Shown one piece after another: positions 55,135 through 61,894 of a DNA stretch of 64,000 nt. The DNA comes from an uncultured delta proteobacterium. Lineage in GTDB: Bacteria > Desulfobacterota > Binatia > UBA9968. The notes under the pieces were generated by a model. It had not been told where the DNA came from and ran no database searches. It worked only from the letters and a program-made list of their open reading frames with translations. A program made the position numbers and the translations under genes. Location: contig CAVUVW010000010.1 in NCBI GenBank assembly GCA_963745035.1, forward strand, positions 64,001 through 128,000, written 5' to 3'. The first letter of the stretch is position 1. Every line of letters starts with the position of its first letter.

Positions 55135-55797
55135 TCAGTGGCCAGGACTTTCCCACACGTTCATCGCGGCGCGGCAGCAGAGCGCGTCTTGCTCGGGCCG
55201 GCTGGCGCCGGCGACGCCGATGGCGCCGACGATGGTCACGCCGTTGAGGATGGGCAAGGCGCCGCCCACGGGCATCATGCGGCCGCGGTGGGAAATCATC
55301 AGGCTGCGCAGCCAGGGTTCGCGCGCCTGGGGAGCGAGCTCCGTGGTCGCCATGTGCAGCGCCGCCGCGGTGTAGGCTTTATGGAATGCGAGCTCCGCCG
55401 AGCGCGGCTCGGCTTTGTCCATGCGCCCGACTGCGATGGGCGCGCCGGCTTCGTCCACGACCACCGCGCTCACCGCGAGTCCGACCATCTGGGCGTATTC
55501 CTGGGCCGAATGAATCATCTCCCAGGCCATGTCGAACGGGACCGGACCGACCGCCGCTTTGTTCTTGCGGAAAAAAGCGGCGTTGACTTCGATCGATCCC
55601 ACATGTTCGGCGGGAATGTCGATGTCTTTGAAGATCGCGTCCACCGGGCAAACGATCTCGCACTGCTCGCAATCGATGCAGACTTCGGGATCGATGTAGA
55701 ACTGCGGCGCGCCCGGCGTGGTGTGGATGCAGGCGACCGGACAGACTTCGACGCACGCGCCGTCGTTGGTGCACAGGCTGGTGATGATGTAGGGCAT
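55135..55797 (-). CDS. Ferredoxin (7Fe/8Fe type) fused to a GlcG/HbpS heme-binding domain
   Basis: CTNDGACVEVCP and CIDCEQCEIVCP, then AVVVDEAG..RMD..KAYTA..GGALPI..GAIGVAG..QD. Confidence 0.88.
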   Translation of the reverse strand: MPYIITSLCTNDGACVEVCPVACIHTTPGAPQFYIDPEVCIDCEQCEIVCPVDAIFKDIDIPAEHVGSIEVNAAFFRKNKAAVGPVPFDMAWEMIHSAQEYAQMVGLAVSAVVVDEAGAPIAVGRMDKAEPRSAELAFHKAYTAAALHMATTELAPQAREPWLRSLMISHRGRMMPVGGALPILNGVTIVGAIGVAGASRPEQDALCCRAAMNVWESPGH

Positions 55798-55887
55798 GGG
55801 TCCTCGCGTTGCTCGGAATCTCACATCTCAGATGTTGAGACGGCCATATGTGAAATTTGAAATTTGCAATCTGTCATGGCCGAAGGG

Positions 55888-56459
55888 CTAGCCGTCGGCC
55901 GCGAGCGGCAGGTCGGTGCGGATCGCGTTGGCGACGTACACGTCAAGCGCCGAATTGCGGCGTGACCAAGCGGCCGTCGGCGTTGAGCGTGCCTAACTTC
56001 GCCCGCACGGCAAGCTTCTCATCGCCAGGCTGCGGCGCCGCCGTGGCGCGAAAGCCCAGCTCTCTGATCCACGCGCTCAAAACGAAGGTGATGAACAAGC
56101 CGTTTTGCACCGGTACTTGGCCGCCGATCCCCGGCGACGTGCGCGGATCGTACTCGGCGCGCACGGCGCAGAGCACGGCAAAAGGCAGGCCTTCGGGATT
56201 TGCGGGGTCGTCGGTATCGAGCTTGGCGATCCCCGTCATGGCAGCGCCGAAGTACTCGGCCATGCCTTTGACGTGCTGCGCGGTAATCTCCGGCGTGTGC
56301 AGCTCGGTTCGCGTCGGGAATATATTCCCTTCGGGGGCCTTGCGGATCATCTCGGTCACCGTATTGGCGAGATCCGCGGGCGGCGTGTTGATGAAAAAAT
56401 CCCAGTAAGGATCGTCCCGGCGCGGGTTTTTCCCGAGTCCAGGGAAGTCGCAAAGCCAC
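55888..56459 (-). CDS. Mini reductive-dehalogenase-like protein: cobalamin-domain paralog without Fe-S motifs (2 frameshifts)
   Basis: GTG overlaps the upstream TAG; TAQHVKGMAEYFGAAMTGIA, WIRELGF, LGTLNADGRLVTPQFGA, then shifted VYVANAIRTDLPLAADG*. Confidence 0.7.
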
Positions 56460-57776
56460 TAGGCGTCCCGTTTGACGAAGCGGTTGGTGTTCTCCTTGAG
56501 CGGCGCATAGTAACCGACGTTTCCGGTCACGGGAGCCGCCGATTTCTTTTCGTGCGACGCGTTGCAGCCGGCGACGGTGCAGGCGTGCTCGCCCGGCTTG
56601 ACGCCGGAGTCGTAGCCCAGCCAAGTGACGCGGCTGCTGCGCACCACGCCCCAGTAGCGGTCGTCGATCCATTTGAGGAAACGCACGAGAGTCGGCCGCG
56701 CGAAGTAAGGACAGGCATGAAGCAGGGAGACCGTCATCGTGTGCCACCAAACATTGGGTTTAGTGAACGGGCAAACTGCGGCGCAGGTCAGGCAACTGCC
56801 CCAGTGCTCGTGCACGTAGGGTCTCAGCTTGTAGCAGGTGAGCCAGTTGATCTTGTATTTTTCGATGCCGTTGAACACGACCTTGTCGCCGAACGGAATG
56901 CTGTTGGTCGGGCAGGTATTGGCGCATTTGCGGCAGATCTTGCAGAAGTCATCGACGCCGATGTCCACCGGCTCGTCGGCAACGAGCGGCAGGTCGGTCA
57001 GGATCGGGTCCGGCATGTGCACGCGGGCGCCGAAATTTTTGTTGATCACTAGGCCGTTTCTGCCCAGCTCGCCGATGCCGCCGGCGACCCCCGCCGCCTG
57101 CGGCGTCACCACACCGCGCAGGGCCGTATAACCCATTTCTTTGATGTAGCCTTCGAGGGCTTTCAGCACCATCACGCCTTTCATTTGCGAAACGTGATAG
57201 GCGGCGTCGCCGACGTGATGGCGGTGCGCTTGCAGCTTGTTGTAATCCCACGCGGTGGTCGCCTGAATGATGTAGGGAAAGCGGCGCACCAGCTCTTCGG
57301 GCGAATTGCTTTGGAAGTCATCTTTGGCCGTGCCGTCCTGCACATAGCGGCCGCCGCCGGCGGCGTAGAGAAACGACGGATGCGCCTTGGCGATGCCGAC
57401 CACGTCGGCGCCCATGTAAAGAGCGACGGCTTTGATGTGGCGGGCCATCGCCGCCGGATCGTCCACCGCCATTCTCCGTGTATTGATTTTGCCGTTGCTC
57501 GACCGGTTGATGACATTGGTCAGAAAGTGTTTGCGGTCCGCGAAGTGATTCGGCGCGGAGACACGGGTCAGAGGATCTTTGGACACCGTGTTGCGATACC
57601 AGTTGAACAGCGGTTTGCCGAGCTCGCCGCGCTGGTTTTTCGGATGGGGCGACTGGTTCATGTCGACGTTGACGTGCTCGCCGACGATTTTAACGGAACG
57701 TCCCAGATAAGGCGTGGGAAATTCGGCGCTGCCGTTGGCGCGCTTGTGATGGTTCCCGGCTTTGTGCTTTGGACAT
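56459..57776 (-). CDS. Reductive dehalogenase-like cobalamin/2x[4Fe-4S] protein, no Tat signal (1-nt frameshift near 57768)
   Basis: IKAVALYMGADVVGIA, GIGELGRNGLVI..FGAR, LTDLPL..D.P.D.G...FCKICRKCANTCP, C..GSCLTCAAVCPF; GGAGGG RBS before ATG57776. Confidence 0.88.
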
Positions 57777-57871
57777 GTCAGGCCCTCCGTTGTTTAAGGA
57801 TGAAGGATGAAAGCCGCGGGGTCAAATGGCGCCCGAACGGCAAATAAGATCATCCTCTAGCCTTGCGGTTT

Positions 57872-58273
57872 TTACCCTTGGTACGCCGCCAGCGCCACCT
57901 CGGCGCATTTCTGGTCCTGGTCTTCGGTGCCGCCGGACACGGCGATGGCGCCGACTACGTTACCGCCTTCGACAATCGGCAGTGCGCCACCTCCCGGCAT
58001 AATGCGGCCACTGCTCGAAACCACAAGACTCTGAAACCAGGTTTGTCCGGCGACGCCAGCCAGTTCCTTGGTGGGTTGCTGGAAGCTTGCTGCAGTGTAG
58101 GCCTTGTTGAGAGCGATTTCGACCGTGATTGGACGCGCCTTATCCATGCGTCCCAAGGCGATCATGCGGCCGCTTTGATCAACCACAGCCGCGGTCACCG
58201 CAATATCCAGTTGGGTCGCCTGGCTGTGGGCGTTGCGCACCATTTGGATCGCTTTTTCTCCGGGAATAGCCAT
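57872..58273 (-). CDS. GlcG/HbpS (Haem_degrading, PduO C-terminal-like) protein
   Basis: AAVVDQSG..RMD..A.NKAYTA..GGGALPI..GAIAVSGG..QD. Confidence 0.9.
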   Translation of the reverse strand: MAIPGEKAIQMVRNAHSQATQLDIAVTAAVVDQSGRMIALGRMDKARPITVEIALNKAYTAASFQQPTKELAGVAGQTWFQSLVVSSSGRIMPGGGALPIVEGGNVVGAIAVSGGTEDQDQKCAEVALAAYQG

Positions 58274-58467
58274 TGTCGCTGCGGTCCTCCTCGGTGTCGA
58301 TGTCGATTGTCTACTTTAGCAGAGATACGCCATGGTGCGTCAAGGGGATAGGTGCTTGGATCAATGTGTACCGCCCTGTCTTGATTGATTGCCACGCGCG
58401 GAGTCACTATGGAAGAGCGCGGCAGTCTCGCCGAAACTCGTCTACTGCTCACGAACGGAGGTTACCG

Positions 58468-58962
58468 ATGTATTTGCGCACGGTGCTGATTATCCTAGTG
58501 CTCGGCTTGGTGGCGATCTTTGCAATTTTTAACTGGAGCGCCTTCTCGGCGCCGACGACGCTGACCCTGGGCTTTGCCACGGTCGAGGCGCCACTCGGGC
58601 TCATTTTGCTCGGCGTCGTCGGGGTGGTGACCGCGCTGTTTCTCGTCTACGTGGTTTTCTTGCAGTCATCCACCCTTATGGAGAGCCGGCGGCAGGCGCG
58701 CGAGCTGCAGGCGCAGCGTGAGATCGCGGACCGCGCCGAGGCGTCGCGCTTCGAGCAGCTACGATCCGCCATGGAAGACGCACTCAAACAGCTGCAGAAC
58801 CAATCTGCAGAATCCAAAACCATCATACTCACCAGGCTCGACCAACTTGAGAACGACTTGCGCGCAGCGGTGGAGCAGTCGGGCAACACGCTGGCGGCCT
58901 ATATCGGCGAAATTGAAGATCGTCTGGAACGAGCCGGCGGTGGAAAGATCTCGCCTCCATGA
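58468..58962 (+). CDS. LapA-family membrane protein with coiled-coil tail
   Basis: Two TM helices (IFAIFNW...APLGLILL), then a coiled coil; GGAGG RBS. Confidence 0.78.
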   Translation: MYLRTVLIILVLGLVAIFAIFNWSAFSAPTTLTLGFATVEAPLGLILLGVVGVVTALFLVYVVFLQSSTLMESRRQARELQAQREIADRAEASRFEQLRSAMEDALKQLQNQSAESKTIILTRLDQLENDLRAAVEQSGNTLAAYIGEIEDRLERAGGGKISPP

Positions 58963-59012: not shown

Positions 59013-60314
59013 CTACTTCTTGGCGCTGACGCGCCACACTTTGTCTCCGGCGTCATCGGCAACCAGCAGCGAGCCATCGGGCGCGACGGTAACGCCCACC
59101 GGCCGACCATATGCTTCGAACTTCGACTCATCGGAGACAAATCCGGTTAAAATATCTTCGATCGGTCCAGCCGGCCTACCATTGGCAAATGGAATAAACG
59201 CGACTTTGTAGCCGACCATCTTCGAGCGATTCCACGAACCGTGCATGCCGATAAAAGCGCCGCCGTGATACCTTTGTGGCAAGCTCTTGCCGTTGTAGAA
59301 CGCCAACCCTAGAGCGGCGGTGTGGGATCCAAGAGCGTAGTCAGGTTTGATCGCTTTGGCGACCAGATCCGGCCGCTGGCCTTTCTTGCGCGGATCTTCG
59401 ATTTGCCCGAAGTAGGAATAGGGCCAACCATAAAAAGCGCCTTCCTTAACGCTTGTGAGGTAGTCCGGAACCAAATCGTCGCCGAGCAGATCGCGCTCGT
59501 TCACCACCGTCCAGAGGCTCTTGGTTGTTGGCTCCCAATCCATGCCGACCGGGTTGCGCAGTCCGCCGGCGAGCACGCGCATCGCGCTGCCGTCGGGATT
59601 GATTTCCAGAATCGCTGCACGCCGCGGGTCTTTCGCGTCGGCGCCGTCTTCGTCGACATTCGAACTCGAGCCAACCGCGATATAAAGTTTTTTCCCCGCC
59701 GGATCGGCGATGAGATTACGGGTGTAATGCCCGCCCGCGGGTAGATCGAGAACTTTTTGCGGTTGTGCGTCGATTTTCGTTTGTCCGGCTTTGTAGGGAA
59801 AGCGCACTACGCCGTCGGTGTTGCCGACGTAAAACCAGTCGCCCAACAATGCCATACCGTGCGGCATATTCAGTCCCGTCAAGAAAGTCTCGCGCAAATC
59901 CGGCTTGCCGTCCTGATTGGTGTCGCGAAAAAGTGTGATGCGATTGGCCGATTTTTCCGGCCGGTCGGCGCGGCCCGGCCATTCACGGGTGGCTTCCACG
60001 ACCAGGATATCACCGTTCGGCAAAACGTAAGCTTGACGTGGATTGTCGAGTTTGTCCGCGAACAGAGCGACTTCGAGGCCGGCAGCCGCTGTCGGCATCT
60101 TTCCCTGCGGCCACCCGATAACCTTCGAATTATTGCGGGTGGACGGGGTGGCGAAAGGCGGGGGCAGTTGCAGCTGGTCGGCAGGGCCGGTACCCGGAGC
60201 ATAAGAAACTCGAACCGCCTTTTGCTGATCCGCCGCGCAAGAAACAATCAGCATCACAATGACGCTCGCCATTGCGGTGGCCATTGCACTGGATAGATAT
60301 CGATCGAACATCAT
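59013..60314 (-). CDS. Sorbosone/PQQ-dependent sugar dehydrogenase family lipoprotein
   Basis: Lipobox IVSC, GLRNPVG, VNERD.LGD..VPDY, FYGWPY, HGSWNRS, GRPVGV. Confidence 0.9.
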   Translation of the reverse strand: MMFDRYLSSAMATAMASVIVMLIVSCAADQQKAVRVSYAPGTGPADQLQLPPPFATPSTRNNSKVIGWPQGKMPTAAAGLEVALFADKLDNPRQAYVLPNGDILVVEATREWPGRADRPEKSANRITLFRDTNQDGKPDLRETFLTGLNMPHGMALLGDWFYVGNTDGVVRFPYKAGQTKIDAQPQKVLDLPAGGHYTRNLIADPAGKKLYIAVGSSSNVDEDGADAKDPRRAAILEINPDGSAMRVLAGGLRNPVGMDWEPTTKSLWTVVNERDLLGDDLVPDYLTSVKEGAFYGWPYSYFGQIEDPRKKGQRPDLVAKAIKPDYALGSHTAALGLAFYNGKSLPQRYHGGAFIGMHGSWNRSKMVGYKVAFIPFANGRPAGPIEDILTGFVSDESKFEAYGRPVGVTVAPDGSLLVADDAGDKVWRVSAKK

Positions 60315-60468: not shown

Positions 60469-61894
60469 ATGCATTACCGGGATTTGCGCGAATGGGTGAA
60501 AGGCGTCGATTCATTCGGCGAGCTGCGTGTCGTCGAAGGCGCCGACTGGAATCAGGAGATCGGCGCGGTGGCCGAGGTCGCGGCGCAGTCCCAGCCGCCG
60601 CCCGCGGTGCTGTTCGATAAGATCAAAGACTATCCTGCGGGCCGGCGCGTGCTCACCGGCATTCACAACCCGACCCTGAAGCGCCAGTGCCTGACCAATC
60701 ACCTGCCGCTCGATTACAGCGCGCGATCAATTCATCGATGCCTGGAAGAAGCGCCTGGACCGTCCGAAGCTGATCCCGCCGCGCGAAGTCGCCTCGGGAC
60801 CGGTGATGGAAAACGTATTCGAAGGCAAGGACATCGATCTTTTGTCCTTGCCGGCGCCACATTGGCATGAAGGCGACGGCGGGCGTTATTTGGGCTCCCT
60901 CGATATCACGATCAGCCGCGATCTCGACGAAGGCTGGATCAATCTCGGCTGCTACCGAGTCATGGTGCATGACCGCGACACTTTGGCGCTTTACATTTCG
61001 CCGGGCCATCACGGCAACATCCACCGGCAAAAATATTTCGACAAGGGGCAGCCGTTTCCAGTGGCGATCAGCTTCGGACCCGGATCCGCTGCTTTGGTTC
61101 TTCGGCCAAATGGACGTGCCGGCGGGCGAGTCGGAGTACGATTATGCCGGCGGCGTGCGTGGCGAAGCCATTCGAGATTATCGCCGGCAAGCACACCGGG
61201 CTGCCGATTCCGGCTTATTCCGGAGATCGCCATCGAAGGCGAAGTGATTCCTGGAACGAAAATTCCCGAGGGACCGTTCGGCGAATTCACCGGCTACTAC
61301 GCCGGCGGGCTGCGCGCCGAGCCGATGCTCAAAGTGAAGCGGCTGATGTACCGCAACGACCCGATCATCACCGGCGCGCCGCCGTTCAAGCCCGCGCCGG
61401 GCGCGGAGAACAATCTGATCCGCGCCGCCTACATCTGGAACTATCTCGACAAGGCTGGGGTGCCGGACGTGCGCGGCGTCGCCTATTATCAGACGCGGCT
61501 GCTGGTCGCGGTGTCGATCAAGCAGCGCTATCCCGGCCATGCGCGCCAGGCGGCGCTGATCGCTTCGCAATGCCGCGCCGCGGCGCTGCTCACGCGCTAC
61601 GTCATCGTGGTCGACGAAGACATCGACATCTGGGACAGCAACGAGCTTTTGTGGGCGCTCTGCACGCGTACGGATCCGGCGAAAGACATCGACATCCTGC
61701 GGCGCTGCTGGAGCAACCCCATCGACCCGATCATTCCGCCGAGTGAGCGCGGCTTTCAGTCGCGCGGCATCATCGACGCCTGCCGGCCCTACGAATGGAT
61801 GAATGATTTTCCGAAAGTCTCCGGCGCAAGCGCGGAGTTGAAGGCAAAGGTGGCGGAGAAGTTCGGCGCGAGTCTAGCGGGGAAGAAGAACTAG
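60469..61894 (+). CDS. UbiD-family (prFMN) decarboxylase (at least 3 frameshifts)
   Basis: YRDLREW, DGGRY, NLGCYR, EGPFGEFTGY, VVDEDID, WALCTR.DP, IIDAC. Confidence 0.88.

Follow-up and report, generated by a model that had tools for sequence, protein, structure and literature searches.

To our knowledge, the reductive dehalogenase (RdhA) superfamily contains the only cobalamin enzymes in which reductive chemistry at cobalt is supported by iron-sulfur (Fe-S) clusters. Few of its members have been characterized, and these are the respiratory dehalogenases, the NpRdhA/BhbA-type enzymes, and the epoxyqueuosine reductase QueG. In this study, we examine a cassette of four co-oriented genes, encoding a free GlcG protein (GlcG1), an RdhA-like protein, a shortened paralog of it termed mini-RdhA, and a ferredoxin::GlcG fusion, at 55135-58273 on the minus strand of a 64,000-nucleotide stretch of DNA from an uncultured delta proteobacterium of the class Binatia (assembly GCA_963745035.1, contig CAVUVW010000010.1, positions 64,001 to 128,000); this whole stretch is referred to as the window. 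The cassette is real, widespread in soils, and probably functional. We put the probability at roughly 0.55 that the four genes are an operon whose products assemble into a soluble reductase of the RdhA superfamily, cytoplasmic and multi-subunit, with the subunit roles proposed below; cobalamin binding, the path of electrons, the role of GlcG, and any substrate are what we infer for it.

The cassette most resembles a catabolic, ferredoxin-dependent RdhA, and departs from that type in its clade, in the lack of a fused vestigial domain, and at the residues equivalent to NpRdhA Y426 and K488. NpRdhA (4ras, 6zy0) and BhbA have in common with the predicted system a cytoplasmic location, the absence of a twin-arginine translocation (Tat) signal and of RdhB, the need for an external low-potential electron donor, a cobalamin-core fold with two [4Fe-4S] clusters, a degenerate second core that forms a pseudo-dimer, and an Arg at the position of R552. 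In NpRdhA, this second core, the vestigial domain, is a cobalamin-free duplicate of the first and mimics the dimer interface of respiratory RdhAs (excerpts of PMC10463259). The degenerate domain of NpRdhA and BhbA is fused at the N-terminus, whereas that of the cassette is separate and encoded downstream. The RdhA-like family also forms a clade of its own and has Gln at Y426, His at K488, and a Tyr-His pair at S422/M423, and the cassette adds a dedicated ferredoxin::GlcG, a free GlcG, and a conserved C-terminal tail that is predicted to be disordered. Respiratory RdhA/RdhB systems (PceA 4uqu; 8q4h) share the catalytic fold and the two Fe-S motifs, but their Tat signal, membrane-anchor gene, and canonical Tyr are all absent here, and a heterodimer with the degenerate paralog is predicted where the respiratory enzymes are homodimers.

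Other described proteins resemble parts of the cassette. RdhA-like proteins of a "simplified cytosolic type", ~395 residues long and devoid of the vestigial domain, occur in Desulfobacterota and Chloroflexota (PMC12219181, Microbiome 2025, in excerpts). They are likewise short, cytosolic, and free of a fused vestigial domain, and the set might include the cassette's family, although the excerpts of that paper mention no trans-encoded vestigial subunit, GlcG, or ferredoxin::GlcG. QueG, another member of the superfamily, also works with cobalamin and a pair of [4Fe-4S] clusters, but is set apart by its scores and by a true QueG elsewhere in the genome. The MMACHC-MMADHC pair (CblC-CblD) likewise joins a B12-binding, nitroreductase-like subunit to a degenerate partner, but lacks the Fe-S domain, handles B12 as cargo or substrate, and has a far weaker fold likeness to the cassette proteins than RdhAs have. 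For the GlcG domains, the relevant DUF336 (PF03928) proteins are OrfY, NahX, the C-terminal domain of PduO (PduOC), HbpS, and EfgA, of which PduOC and OrfY also adjoin a cobalamin enzyme. Structure 2a2l is OrfY of the Klebsiella dha region, and EfgA senses formaldehyde (excerpts of PMC8153426). PduOC binds heme tightly through His18, with bis-His ligation, and its aquocobalamin binding is "extremely weak" if any, while HbpS does bind aquocobalamin (excerpts of PMC4923194). Our literature searches returned nothing on the function of the NahX protein, no description of a DUF336 protein fused to ferredoxin or paired with an RdhA, and no publication that joins "reductive dehalogenase" with GlcG, DUF336, or Binatia/Binatota. 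This agrees with an earlier note on the same DNA, made from the sequence alone, whose author knew of no described system with this composition.

Conservation and Organization of the Cassette

Related loci were collected by a scan of species-representative genomes, which gave 53 loci, all from metagenome-assembled genomes (MAGs), and gene order was counted by tblastn at those loci that had enough flanking sequence. The RdhA gene has GlcG upstream of it in 49 of 50 loci and mini-RdhA downstream of it in 47 of 47; ferredoxin::GlcG follows mini-RdhA in 40 of 41, and 38 of 39 loci have the full set of four. Chance cannot account for such an arrangement, and the four-gene synteny that the earlier note had proposed to look for in other genomes is conserved. 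Beyond the four genes, no flanking gene is conserved, the commonest cluster (located by the coordinates of an example member) reaching 13 of 52 loci. Nor was an adenosyltransferase or transporter gene linked to the cassette, or a catabolic neighbor conserved, across the related loci. The features of the cassette in the window are as follows.

57872..58273, minus strand: GlcG1, free HbpS-like/GlcG (DUF336) protein of 133 residues (PF03928, E 5.9e-31)
57774..57788, minus strand: start codon (ATG) of the RdhA-like gene with its ribosome-binding site, GGAGG (from sequence)
56459..57776, minus strand: RdhA-like protein, putative catalytic subunit, ~438 residues when read through (uninterrupted open reading frame 56459-57661, 400 residues)
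56457..56461, minus strand: TAGTG, in which the RdhA stop overlaps the GTG start of mini-RdhA (from sequence)
55888..56459, minus strand: mini-RdhA, ~189 residues when read through, Fe-S domain absent (uninterrupted open reading frame 55943-56359, 138 residues)
55546..55797, minus strand: FdxA-like dicluster ferredoxin domain of the fusion protein (Fer4 Pfam matches)
55135..55533, minus strand: GlcG2, HbpS-like/GlcG domain of the fusion protein (PF03928, E 5e-28)

These coordinates and domains bear out the four minus-strand genes of the earlier note, including its ferredoxin fused to a second GlcG domain. The RdhA-like gene starts at ATG 57776, with GGAGG in front of it; the first 11 residues from this ATG match the N-terminus of relative L004, and the RdhA-like relatives are 437-447 residues long and begin with M-S/A-K/L. 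Mini-RdhA, when read through, runs from the GTG within TAGTG to a stop at 55888-55890. The fusion gene, an open reading frame at 55135-55824, most likely starts at ATG 55797 and would then encode 220 residues.

Reading through is needed at three single extra bases, so that the insertions or deletions suspected in the earlier note do exist. One, near 57742, separates the body of the RdhA-like protein from its true start; another, near 56438, falls just past the true start of mini-RdhA; and the third, near 55948, removes the last ~18 codons of mini-RdhA. The base at 57742 is missing in a near-identical 1737-nucleotide short-read contig of run X5, and that at 55948 in near-identical short-read contigs of runs X1, X15, and X16. 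The base near 56438 was deduced from an alignment with four relatives, the short-read contigs barely covering 56277-56490. The nearby UbiD-family decarboxylase gene (60469-61894, plus strand) is likewise split over overlapping frames, UbiD_N at 60469-60870 and UbiD plus UbiD_C at 60803-61894, probably by another one-base assembly indel, and the assembly therefore appears to carry scattered errors of this kind. Three frame breaks within 1.9 kilobases could also mark a decaying cluster in which the RdhA-like gene and mini-RdhA are pseudogenes. We rejected this reading as very improbable on the strength of the independent contigs, which lack two of the three bases, and of the purifying selection on mini-RdhA, with a median ratio of nonsynonymous to synonymous substitution rates (dN/dS) of 0.128 over 780 of 903 pairs with dS of 0.2-2.5. 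The split UbiD gene and the intact genes of the relatives point the same way. The read-through lengths of ~438 and ~189 residues are those of the relatives.

The cassette is tightly conserved and patchily distributed. The RdhA-like protein keeps 75-93% identity across many MAG lineages, and a scan of the window's class (E up to 1e-80) detected it in 9 of 201 genomes; within the window's taxonomic family, 7 of 13 genomes have it. Most of the 53 loci are labeled Binatia or "delta proteobacterium", and the others Acidiferrales, Rokubacteria, Eisenbacteria, Udaeobacter, Syntrophobacter, Chloroflexota, or Gammaproteobacteria; because contigs longer than 50 kilobases come only from Binatia-type loci and one Acidiferrales locus, the remaining labels rest on binning. 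Protein searches (representatives of 90%-identity clusters, E up to 0.001) returned 641 relatives of the large protein, 1613 of mini-RdhA, and 1379 of the fusion protein, which their sources name "reductive dehalogenase", "hypothetical protein", and "ferredoxin" or "heme-binding protein", respectively. Near-identical DNA is present in soil, rhizosphere, and winery metagenomes from 10 studies. A plasmid collection gave 10 records, none of which reached 30% identity; each is a catabolic or respiratory RdhA already known, and no member of the cassette's RdhA-like family was among them.

The RdhA-like Protein

The large protein matches the "reductive dehalogenase" model TIGR02486 with 148 bits, under the cut-off of 160.35, and also matches a two-[4Fe-4S] domain. 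In an alignment of 70 sequences, all keep the eight cysteines of its two [4Fe-4S] motifs, which in L007 numbering are C278, C281, C284, C288, C314, C328, C331, and C335. None of 115 full-length family proteins has a Tat-like motif, a pair of arginines among its first 35 residues, or a window of 19 residues that is hydrophobic, and no rdhB-like neighbor or conserved small membrane gene lies beside the cassette among the related loci. The earlier note's description of a ~440-residue RdhA-like protein with both Fe-S motifs, no Tat peptide, and no rdhB anchor is thus accurate. An AlphaFold model (mean predicted local distance difference test (pLDDT) score 81.3, predicted template modeling score 0.84) has the RdhA-type cobalamin-binding core fold. 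Its best match is to residues 270-616 of NpRdhA (4ras_B; Z 34.0, root-mean-square deviation 2.5, 331 residues aligned), followed by the RDH complex 8q4h (Z 32.8) and PceA chains (Z ~30-33); QueG (Z 14.3) and MMACHC (Z 6.5) are much farther off. NpRdhA is also the closest solved relative by sequence (HMMER, E 4e-31). Sequence and model together support the assignment of the large protein to the RdhA superfamily as a cytoplasmic member.

The identity of the large protein as an ordinary epoxyqueuosine reductase was rejected and seems to us scarcely credible. One database relative carries the name "epoxyqueuosine reductase QueG" from its source, and the QueG model TIGR00276 does match weakly, but the 57 bits obtained are far under the cut-off of 200. 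A true QueG (401 bits) is encoded elsewhere in the genome, on contig C13, and QueA and CobQ are present as well; the fold is much nearer to NpRdhA than to QueG; and QueG stands as an outgroup on a long branch in the tree. An ordinary QueG, which the earlier note had named as an outcome fatal to its proposal, is therefore not what was found.

A quick maximum-likelihood tree was computed from 76 rows, with Shimodaira-Hasegawa-like approximate likelihood ratio support only, with the genome's own QueG as outgroup, and with Comamonas BhbA, Nitratireductor RdhA, and Sulfurospirillum and Trichlorobacter RdhAs from plasmid records as references. The family and its distant variants, L052 and P0241, form one clade (support 100), sister (support 99) to ~40%-identity paralogs of related genomes that are accompanied by ferredoxin only. 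It lies apart from the clade of BhbA and Nitratireductor RdhA (support 100) and from the respiratory clade. The comparison with BhbA/NpRdhA-type enzymes, respiratory enzymes, and QueG that the earlier note had suggested hence shows a separate family. Its boundary is sharp: in a search of 1.84 billion cluster representatives, the family's own fragments were followed by one form of 54% identity, one of 39%, and then generic RdhAs at ~30-36%.

The last ~45 residues of the large protein (56459-56595, minus strand) are predicted to be disordered (pLDDT <50) and yet are nearly invariant. They hold a Cys-x4-Cys-x3-His stretch and a terminal Tyr-Tyr/Lys-Glu-Asn motif, and may serve in docking, as a peptide, or in metal binding. 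Both the family and L052 have the tail, and the ferredoxin-only paralogs lack it, a co-occurrence with mini-RdhA and GlcG, seen in two lineages only, that suggests docking on one of them. Since the tail barely contacts mini-RdhA in the predicted heterodimer described below, GlcG is the better guess.

Mini-RdhA and the Predicted Heterodimer

Mini-RdhA has no Pfam match, nor do the best 120 of its 1613 database relatives, and a search of the ESM Atlas returned only "hypothetical protein" clusters. It aligns weakly with the N-terminus of TIGR02486 (18.9 bits). Comparison of alignments by hhalign, however, places residues 36-189 of mini-RdhA on residues 87-269 of the RdhA-like protein with 99.9% probability (E 2.3e-31); the homology ends just ahead of the first Fe-S cysteine, and the Tyr-His pair of the large protein is missing. 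The start codon of mini-RdhA lies no more than 12 nucleotides from the RdhA stop in 46 of 50 loci, 32 of which have the overlapping TAGTG, an arrangement that, as read from the sequence, is classic translational coupling. The model of mini-RdhA (pLDDT 84.4) best matches residues 38-218 of NpRdhA (Z 15.1, root-mean-square deviation 3.6, 160 aligned), followed by PceA cores (Z ~12), QueG (~10), and CblD/MMADHC (~8; 8.2). With the large protein matching residues 270-616, the pair rebuilds the two halves of NpRdhA from two chains in the opposite gene order.

A complex of the RdhA-like protein with mini-RdhA was predicted alongside three controls, using our own alignments as input. The pair reached an ipSAE (interaction prediction score from aligned errors) of 0.87, the best control 0.01; of 80 solved complexes, 58 pass the same mark, as do 2 of 110 mismatched pairs, counts that hold only roughly for input of this kind. 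Runs agree in at least 63% of contacts, the partners have pLDDT values of at least 84, and the interface is a packing of central helices, residues 191-214 of the RdhA-like protein with residues 111-134 of mini-RdhA. From its model and from the analogy with NpRdhA, mini-RdhA is probably a structural, cobalamin-free pseudo-dimer partner rather than a second B12 site. The earlier note had called it a coupled paralog consisting of the B12 domain only: a coupled paralog of the core it is, and a second B12 site is what the match to the vestigial domain speaks against.

A Remodeled Active Site

The active-site residues of NpRdhA are F291, S422, M423, Y426, K488, and R552, as listed in excerpts of PMC10463259. 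The corresponding columns were read from two independent MAFFT alignments, each of which includes named references beside many other RdhAs, and the two agree with each other. At Y426, all 19 family members, including P0241 (the 54%-identity form), have Gln, whereas Tyr is found in 48 of 51 representatives of other RdhAs and in 55 of 58 when the named references are added; we take the PceA equivalent of this residue to be Y246. At K488, the family has His in 19 of 19, and 55 of the 58 others have Arg or Lys, with Lys in Comamonas BhbA and the Nitratireductor sequences. The R552 column holds Arg in 19 of 19 members and in BhbA and Nitratireductor, and Trp in most others. The S422/M423 columns, varied in other RdhAs, hold the invariant Tyr-His pair in all 19.

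The Tyr of this pair sits four residues before the canonical Tyr column. In the ~40% paralogs, the shifted Tyr is kept, as is the His, and the canonical column holds Asn. A pairwise HMMER alignment to NpRdhA gave another register, with Y426 adjacent to the family Tyr; it was rejected in favor of that of MAFFT, in which the helix is free of gaps from the Y426 column to a conserved LGY motif. As far as the sequences tell, the whole clade appears to have lost the near-universal Tyr, with a candidate replacement one helical turn away. Such a remodeled active site suggests that the substrate, and possibly the chemistry, differs from that of the characterized dehalogenases. The exchange of Tyr for Gln does not figure in the earlier note.

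Ferredoxin and GlcG Domains

The first ~80 residues of the fusion protein are recognized by generic Fer4 Pfam models and match FdxA-type ferredoxins best, with scores below the cut-offs of FdxA_Actino (NF045480; 69.5 bits, cut-off 125) and FdxA_fam (46.7 bits, cut-off 65). The first Cys motif lacks the second Cys of the clostridial motif, a spacing that we take to be a mark of 7Fe ferredoxins. The best 120 of the 1379 relatives of the fusion protein are 204-235 residues long, mostly 220-221, and all have both PF03928 and Fer4. Five copies of the ~40%-identity RdhA paralogs were examined, and behind 3 of them comes a gene for the ferredoxin alone, with neither mini-RdhA nor GlcG. Ferredoxin is therefore a recurrent partner of the wider clade, to which mini-RdhA and GlcG are additions in the cassette's family. 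These three copies (L059, 4057-5542 and 6836-8393; L060, 3982-5480) each precede a stand-alone FdxA-like ferredoxin, and have solute-binding proteins, a cupin, and EutA among their neighbors.

The PF03928 scores are 107.6 bits for GlcG1 and 98.1 bits for the fused domain (cut-off 25). The closest solved relatives of GlcG1 are K. pneumoniae OrfY (2a2l, E 5.6e-21), NahX (9jth), and PduOC (5cx7), and EfgA (6bws, E 1e-9) and HbpS are farther off. Fusion of GlcG to ferredoxin argues for a role in assembly or in the positioning of the ferredoxin. Locus L052 (1406-4229) comes from another MAG, of marine type; its variant has 52% identity and a non-overlapping mini-RdhA, and its only GlcG is the fused one, which is 56% identical to GlcG1 of the window and 43% to GlcG2; these identities fit a duplication followed by formation of a hetero-oligomer. 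A divergently oriented multi-pass membrane protein, possibly a transporter, is encoded there upstream, where GlcG would be. The whole genome contains seven HbpS-like/GlcG domains, three of which are near-identical 161-residue open frames on contigs C3, C6, and C7.

Discussion

In the multi-subunit reductase that we favor, the ~438-residue protein would be the catalytic subunit, with a cobalamin-binding core and two [4Fe-4S] clusters, and the ~189-residue mini-RdhA would be a degenerate copy of the core that packs on it as a pseudo-dimer partner, a job done in NpRdhA by the fused vestigial domain and in respiratory RdhAs by the second monomer. The FdxA-like ferredoxin domain would deliver low-potential electrons to the Fe-S clusters and through them to cobalt. 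Free and fused GlcG would probably associate as a hetero-oligomer and so keep the ferredoxin close to the enzyme, and the GlcG domains may also help to handle or reductively reactivate the cofactor. The earlier note had proposed a soluble, multi-subunit B12 reductase of this general kind. Translational coupling and the predicted heterodimer make its multi-subunit enzyme plausible; its GlcG domains that bind or deliver the tetrapyrrole are a lead without support.

Several points weigh against the proposed reductase, and the alignment of the PduOC heme ligand His18 with Ile9 of GlcG1, the free GlcG alone having been compared, adds to the doubt about tetrapyrrole binding. No reductase that could charge the ferredoxin is encoded in the cassette. 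The large protein's predicted binding of cobalamin and of Fe-S clusters derives from homology, and the score of the complex may echo the solved NpRdhA and PceA structures. The near-universal catalytic Tyr is missing, so that ordinary dehalogenase chemistry is not assured. Two loci break the gene order: at L022, a pyruvate kinase gene follows mini-RdhA in place of ferredoxin::GlcG, and L052 has RdhA, mini-RdhA, and ferredoxin::GlcG with the upstream GlcG absent. Contigs of two RNA-library runs overlap parts of GlcG1, the RdhA-like gene, and mini-RdhA at 95-99+% likeness, which hints at expression; these libraries may hold DNA, and no single transcript is shown by them.

The alternative nearest at hand is that the cassette encodes an organohalide dehalogenase of the ordinary catabolic, NpRdhA/BhbA kind, acting for instance on natural halophenols of soil, that has merely been split in two and to which GlcG is dispensable. 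NpRdhA is the best match in sequence (E 4e-31) and in fold (Z 34), Arg is kept at R552 in every family member, the cytoplasmic, ferredoxin-dependent layout is that of the catabolic RdhAs (excerpts of PMC10463259), and the cassette is found in soil and rhizosphere metagenomes. The family nevertheless stands apart from the BhbA/Nitratireductor clade (support 100 for each in the quick tree), has Gln and His at Y426 and K488 without exception, and has no conserved catabolic neighbors. An identity of 75-93% across many lineages is unusual for dehalogenases that diversify in substrate, and the retention of GlcG (49/50) and ferredoxin::GlcG (40/41) argues against dispensability. We regard this dehalogenase as unlikely. 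It is improbable, in our judgment, that cobalamin is itself the substrate, with the RdhA-like protein and mini-RdhA forming a bacterial system that processes or reduces B12 after the manner of MMACHC and MMADHC, and GlcG acting like PduOC or OrfY. The models do recall MMACHC (Z 6.5) and MMADHC/CblD (Z 8.2), including the MMACHC-MMADHC-B12 complex 9mrs, the solved proteins nearest to GlcG (OrfY 2a2l and PduOC) are encoded in operons linked to B12, and the cassette stands alone, with no pathway neighbors. The fit to RdhAs, however, is far better (Z 30-34), two [4Fe-4S] clusters and RdhA-type pocket residues are kept, neither an adenosyltransferase nor a transporter is linked, and a presence in 9 of 201 genomes of the class is too patchy to suit a housekeeping cofactor pathway.

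A different question is whether the GlcG proteins are sensors or regulators of small molecules that gate electron flow or expression, as opposed to carriers or scaffolds. The DUF336 protein EfgA senses formaldehyde (PMC8153426, excerpts) and its structure matches GlcG1, and the tetrapyrrole alternative is weakened by the loss of PduOC His18 from GlcG1 and by the very weak aquocobalamin binding of PduOC (PMC4923194, excerpts). Set against these points are the nearer relationship of GlcG1 to OrfY, NahX, and PduOC than to EfgA and the covalent fusion to ferredoxin, kept at ~220 residues in most of the best 120 relatives, which points to a role in electron transfer or assembly. We consider sensing a rather unlikely function. 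As for the favored reductase itself, a bolder version of it is tentative and also unlikely as a whole, namely that it represents an undescribed class of cobalamin enzyme. This would be an alpha-beta RdhA-type enzyme with its proton-donor Tyr moved by one turn, which would catalyze a reduction other than dehalogenation of a common soil metabolite; its ferredoxin would be carried on a GlcG hetero-oligomer, and GlcG would dock the C-terminal tail and handle or reactivate the corrinoid.

The family is of interest since it is common in soil metagenomes and tightly conserved, yet lacks the Tyr shared by almost all of its relatives. The data also imply that the vestigial-domain solution of NpRdhA exists as a separate subunit. 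The question of GlcG is the most interesting part of the cassette: a compact system with ferredoxin::GlcG and free GlcG beside a B12 enzyme offers a direct test bed for DUF336/GlcG function in cobalamin pathways, and GlcG docking and corrinoid handling, if true, would give a defined role to the long-enigmatic DUF336 domains of PduO and OrfY.

Genomic Surroundings

Between 54500 and 59500, a search for riboswitch and RNA families gave no match at E up to 1. A terminator scan found no terminator-like site on the minus strand, and a promoter scan found three weak promoter-like sites, one of them 216 nucleotides upstream of GlcG1. The neighbors of the cassette in the window include an ABC (ATP-binding cassette) transporter, a pyrroloquinoline quinone (PQQ)-type dehydrogenase, UbiD, MmgE/PrpD, and an NMT1-like binding protein; these are not shared by the related loci, and none is conserved beside the cassette elsewhere. 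Upstream of the cassette, 58273-58962 (plus strand) encodes a membrane/coiled-coil protein that weakly matches T2SS-M and a LapA domain, and 59013-60314 (minus strand) encodes a PQQ-type glucose/sorbosone dehydrogenase-like protein.

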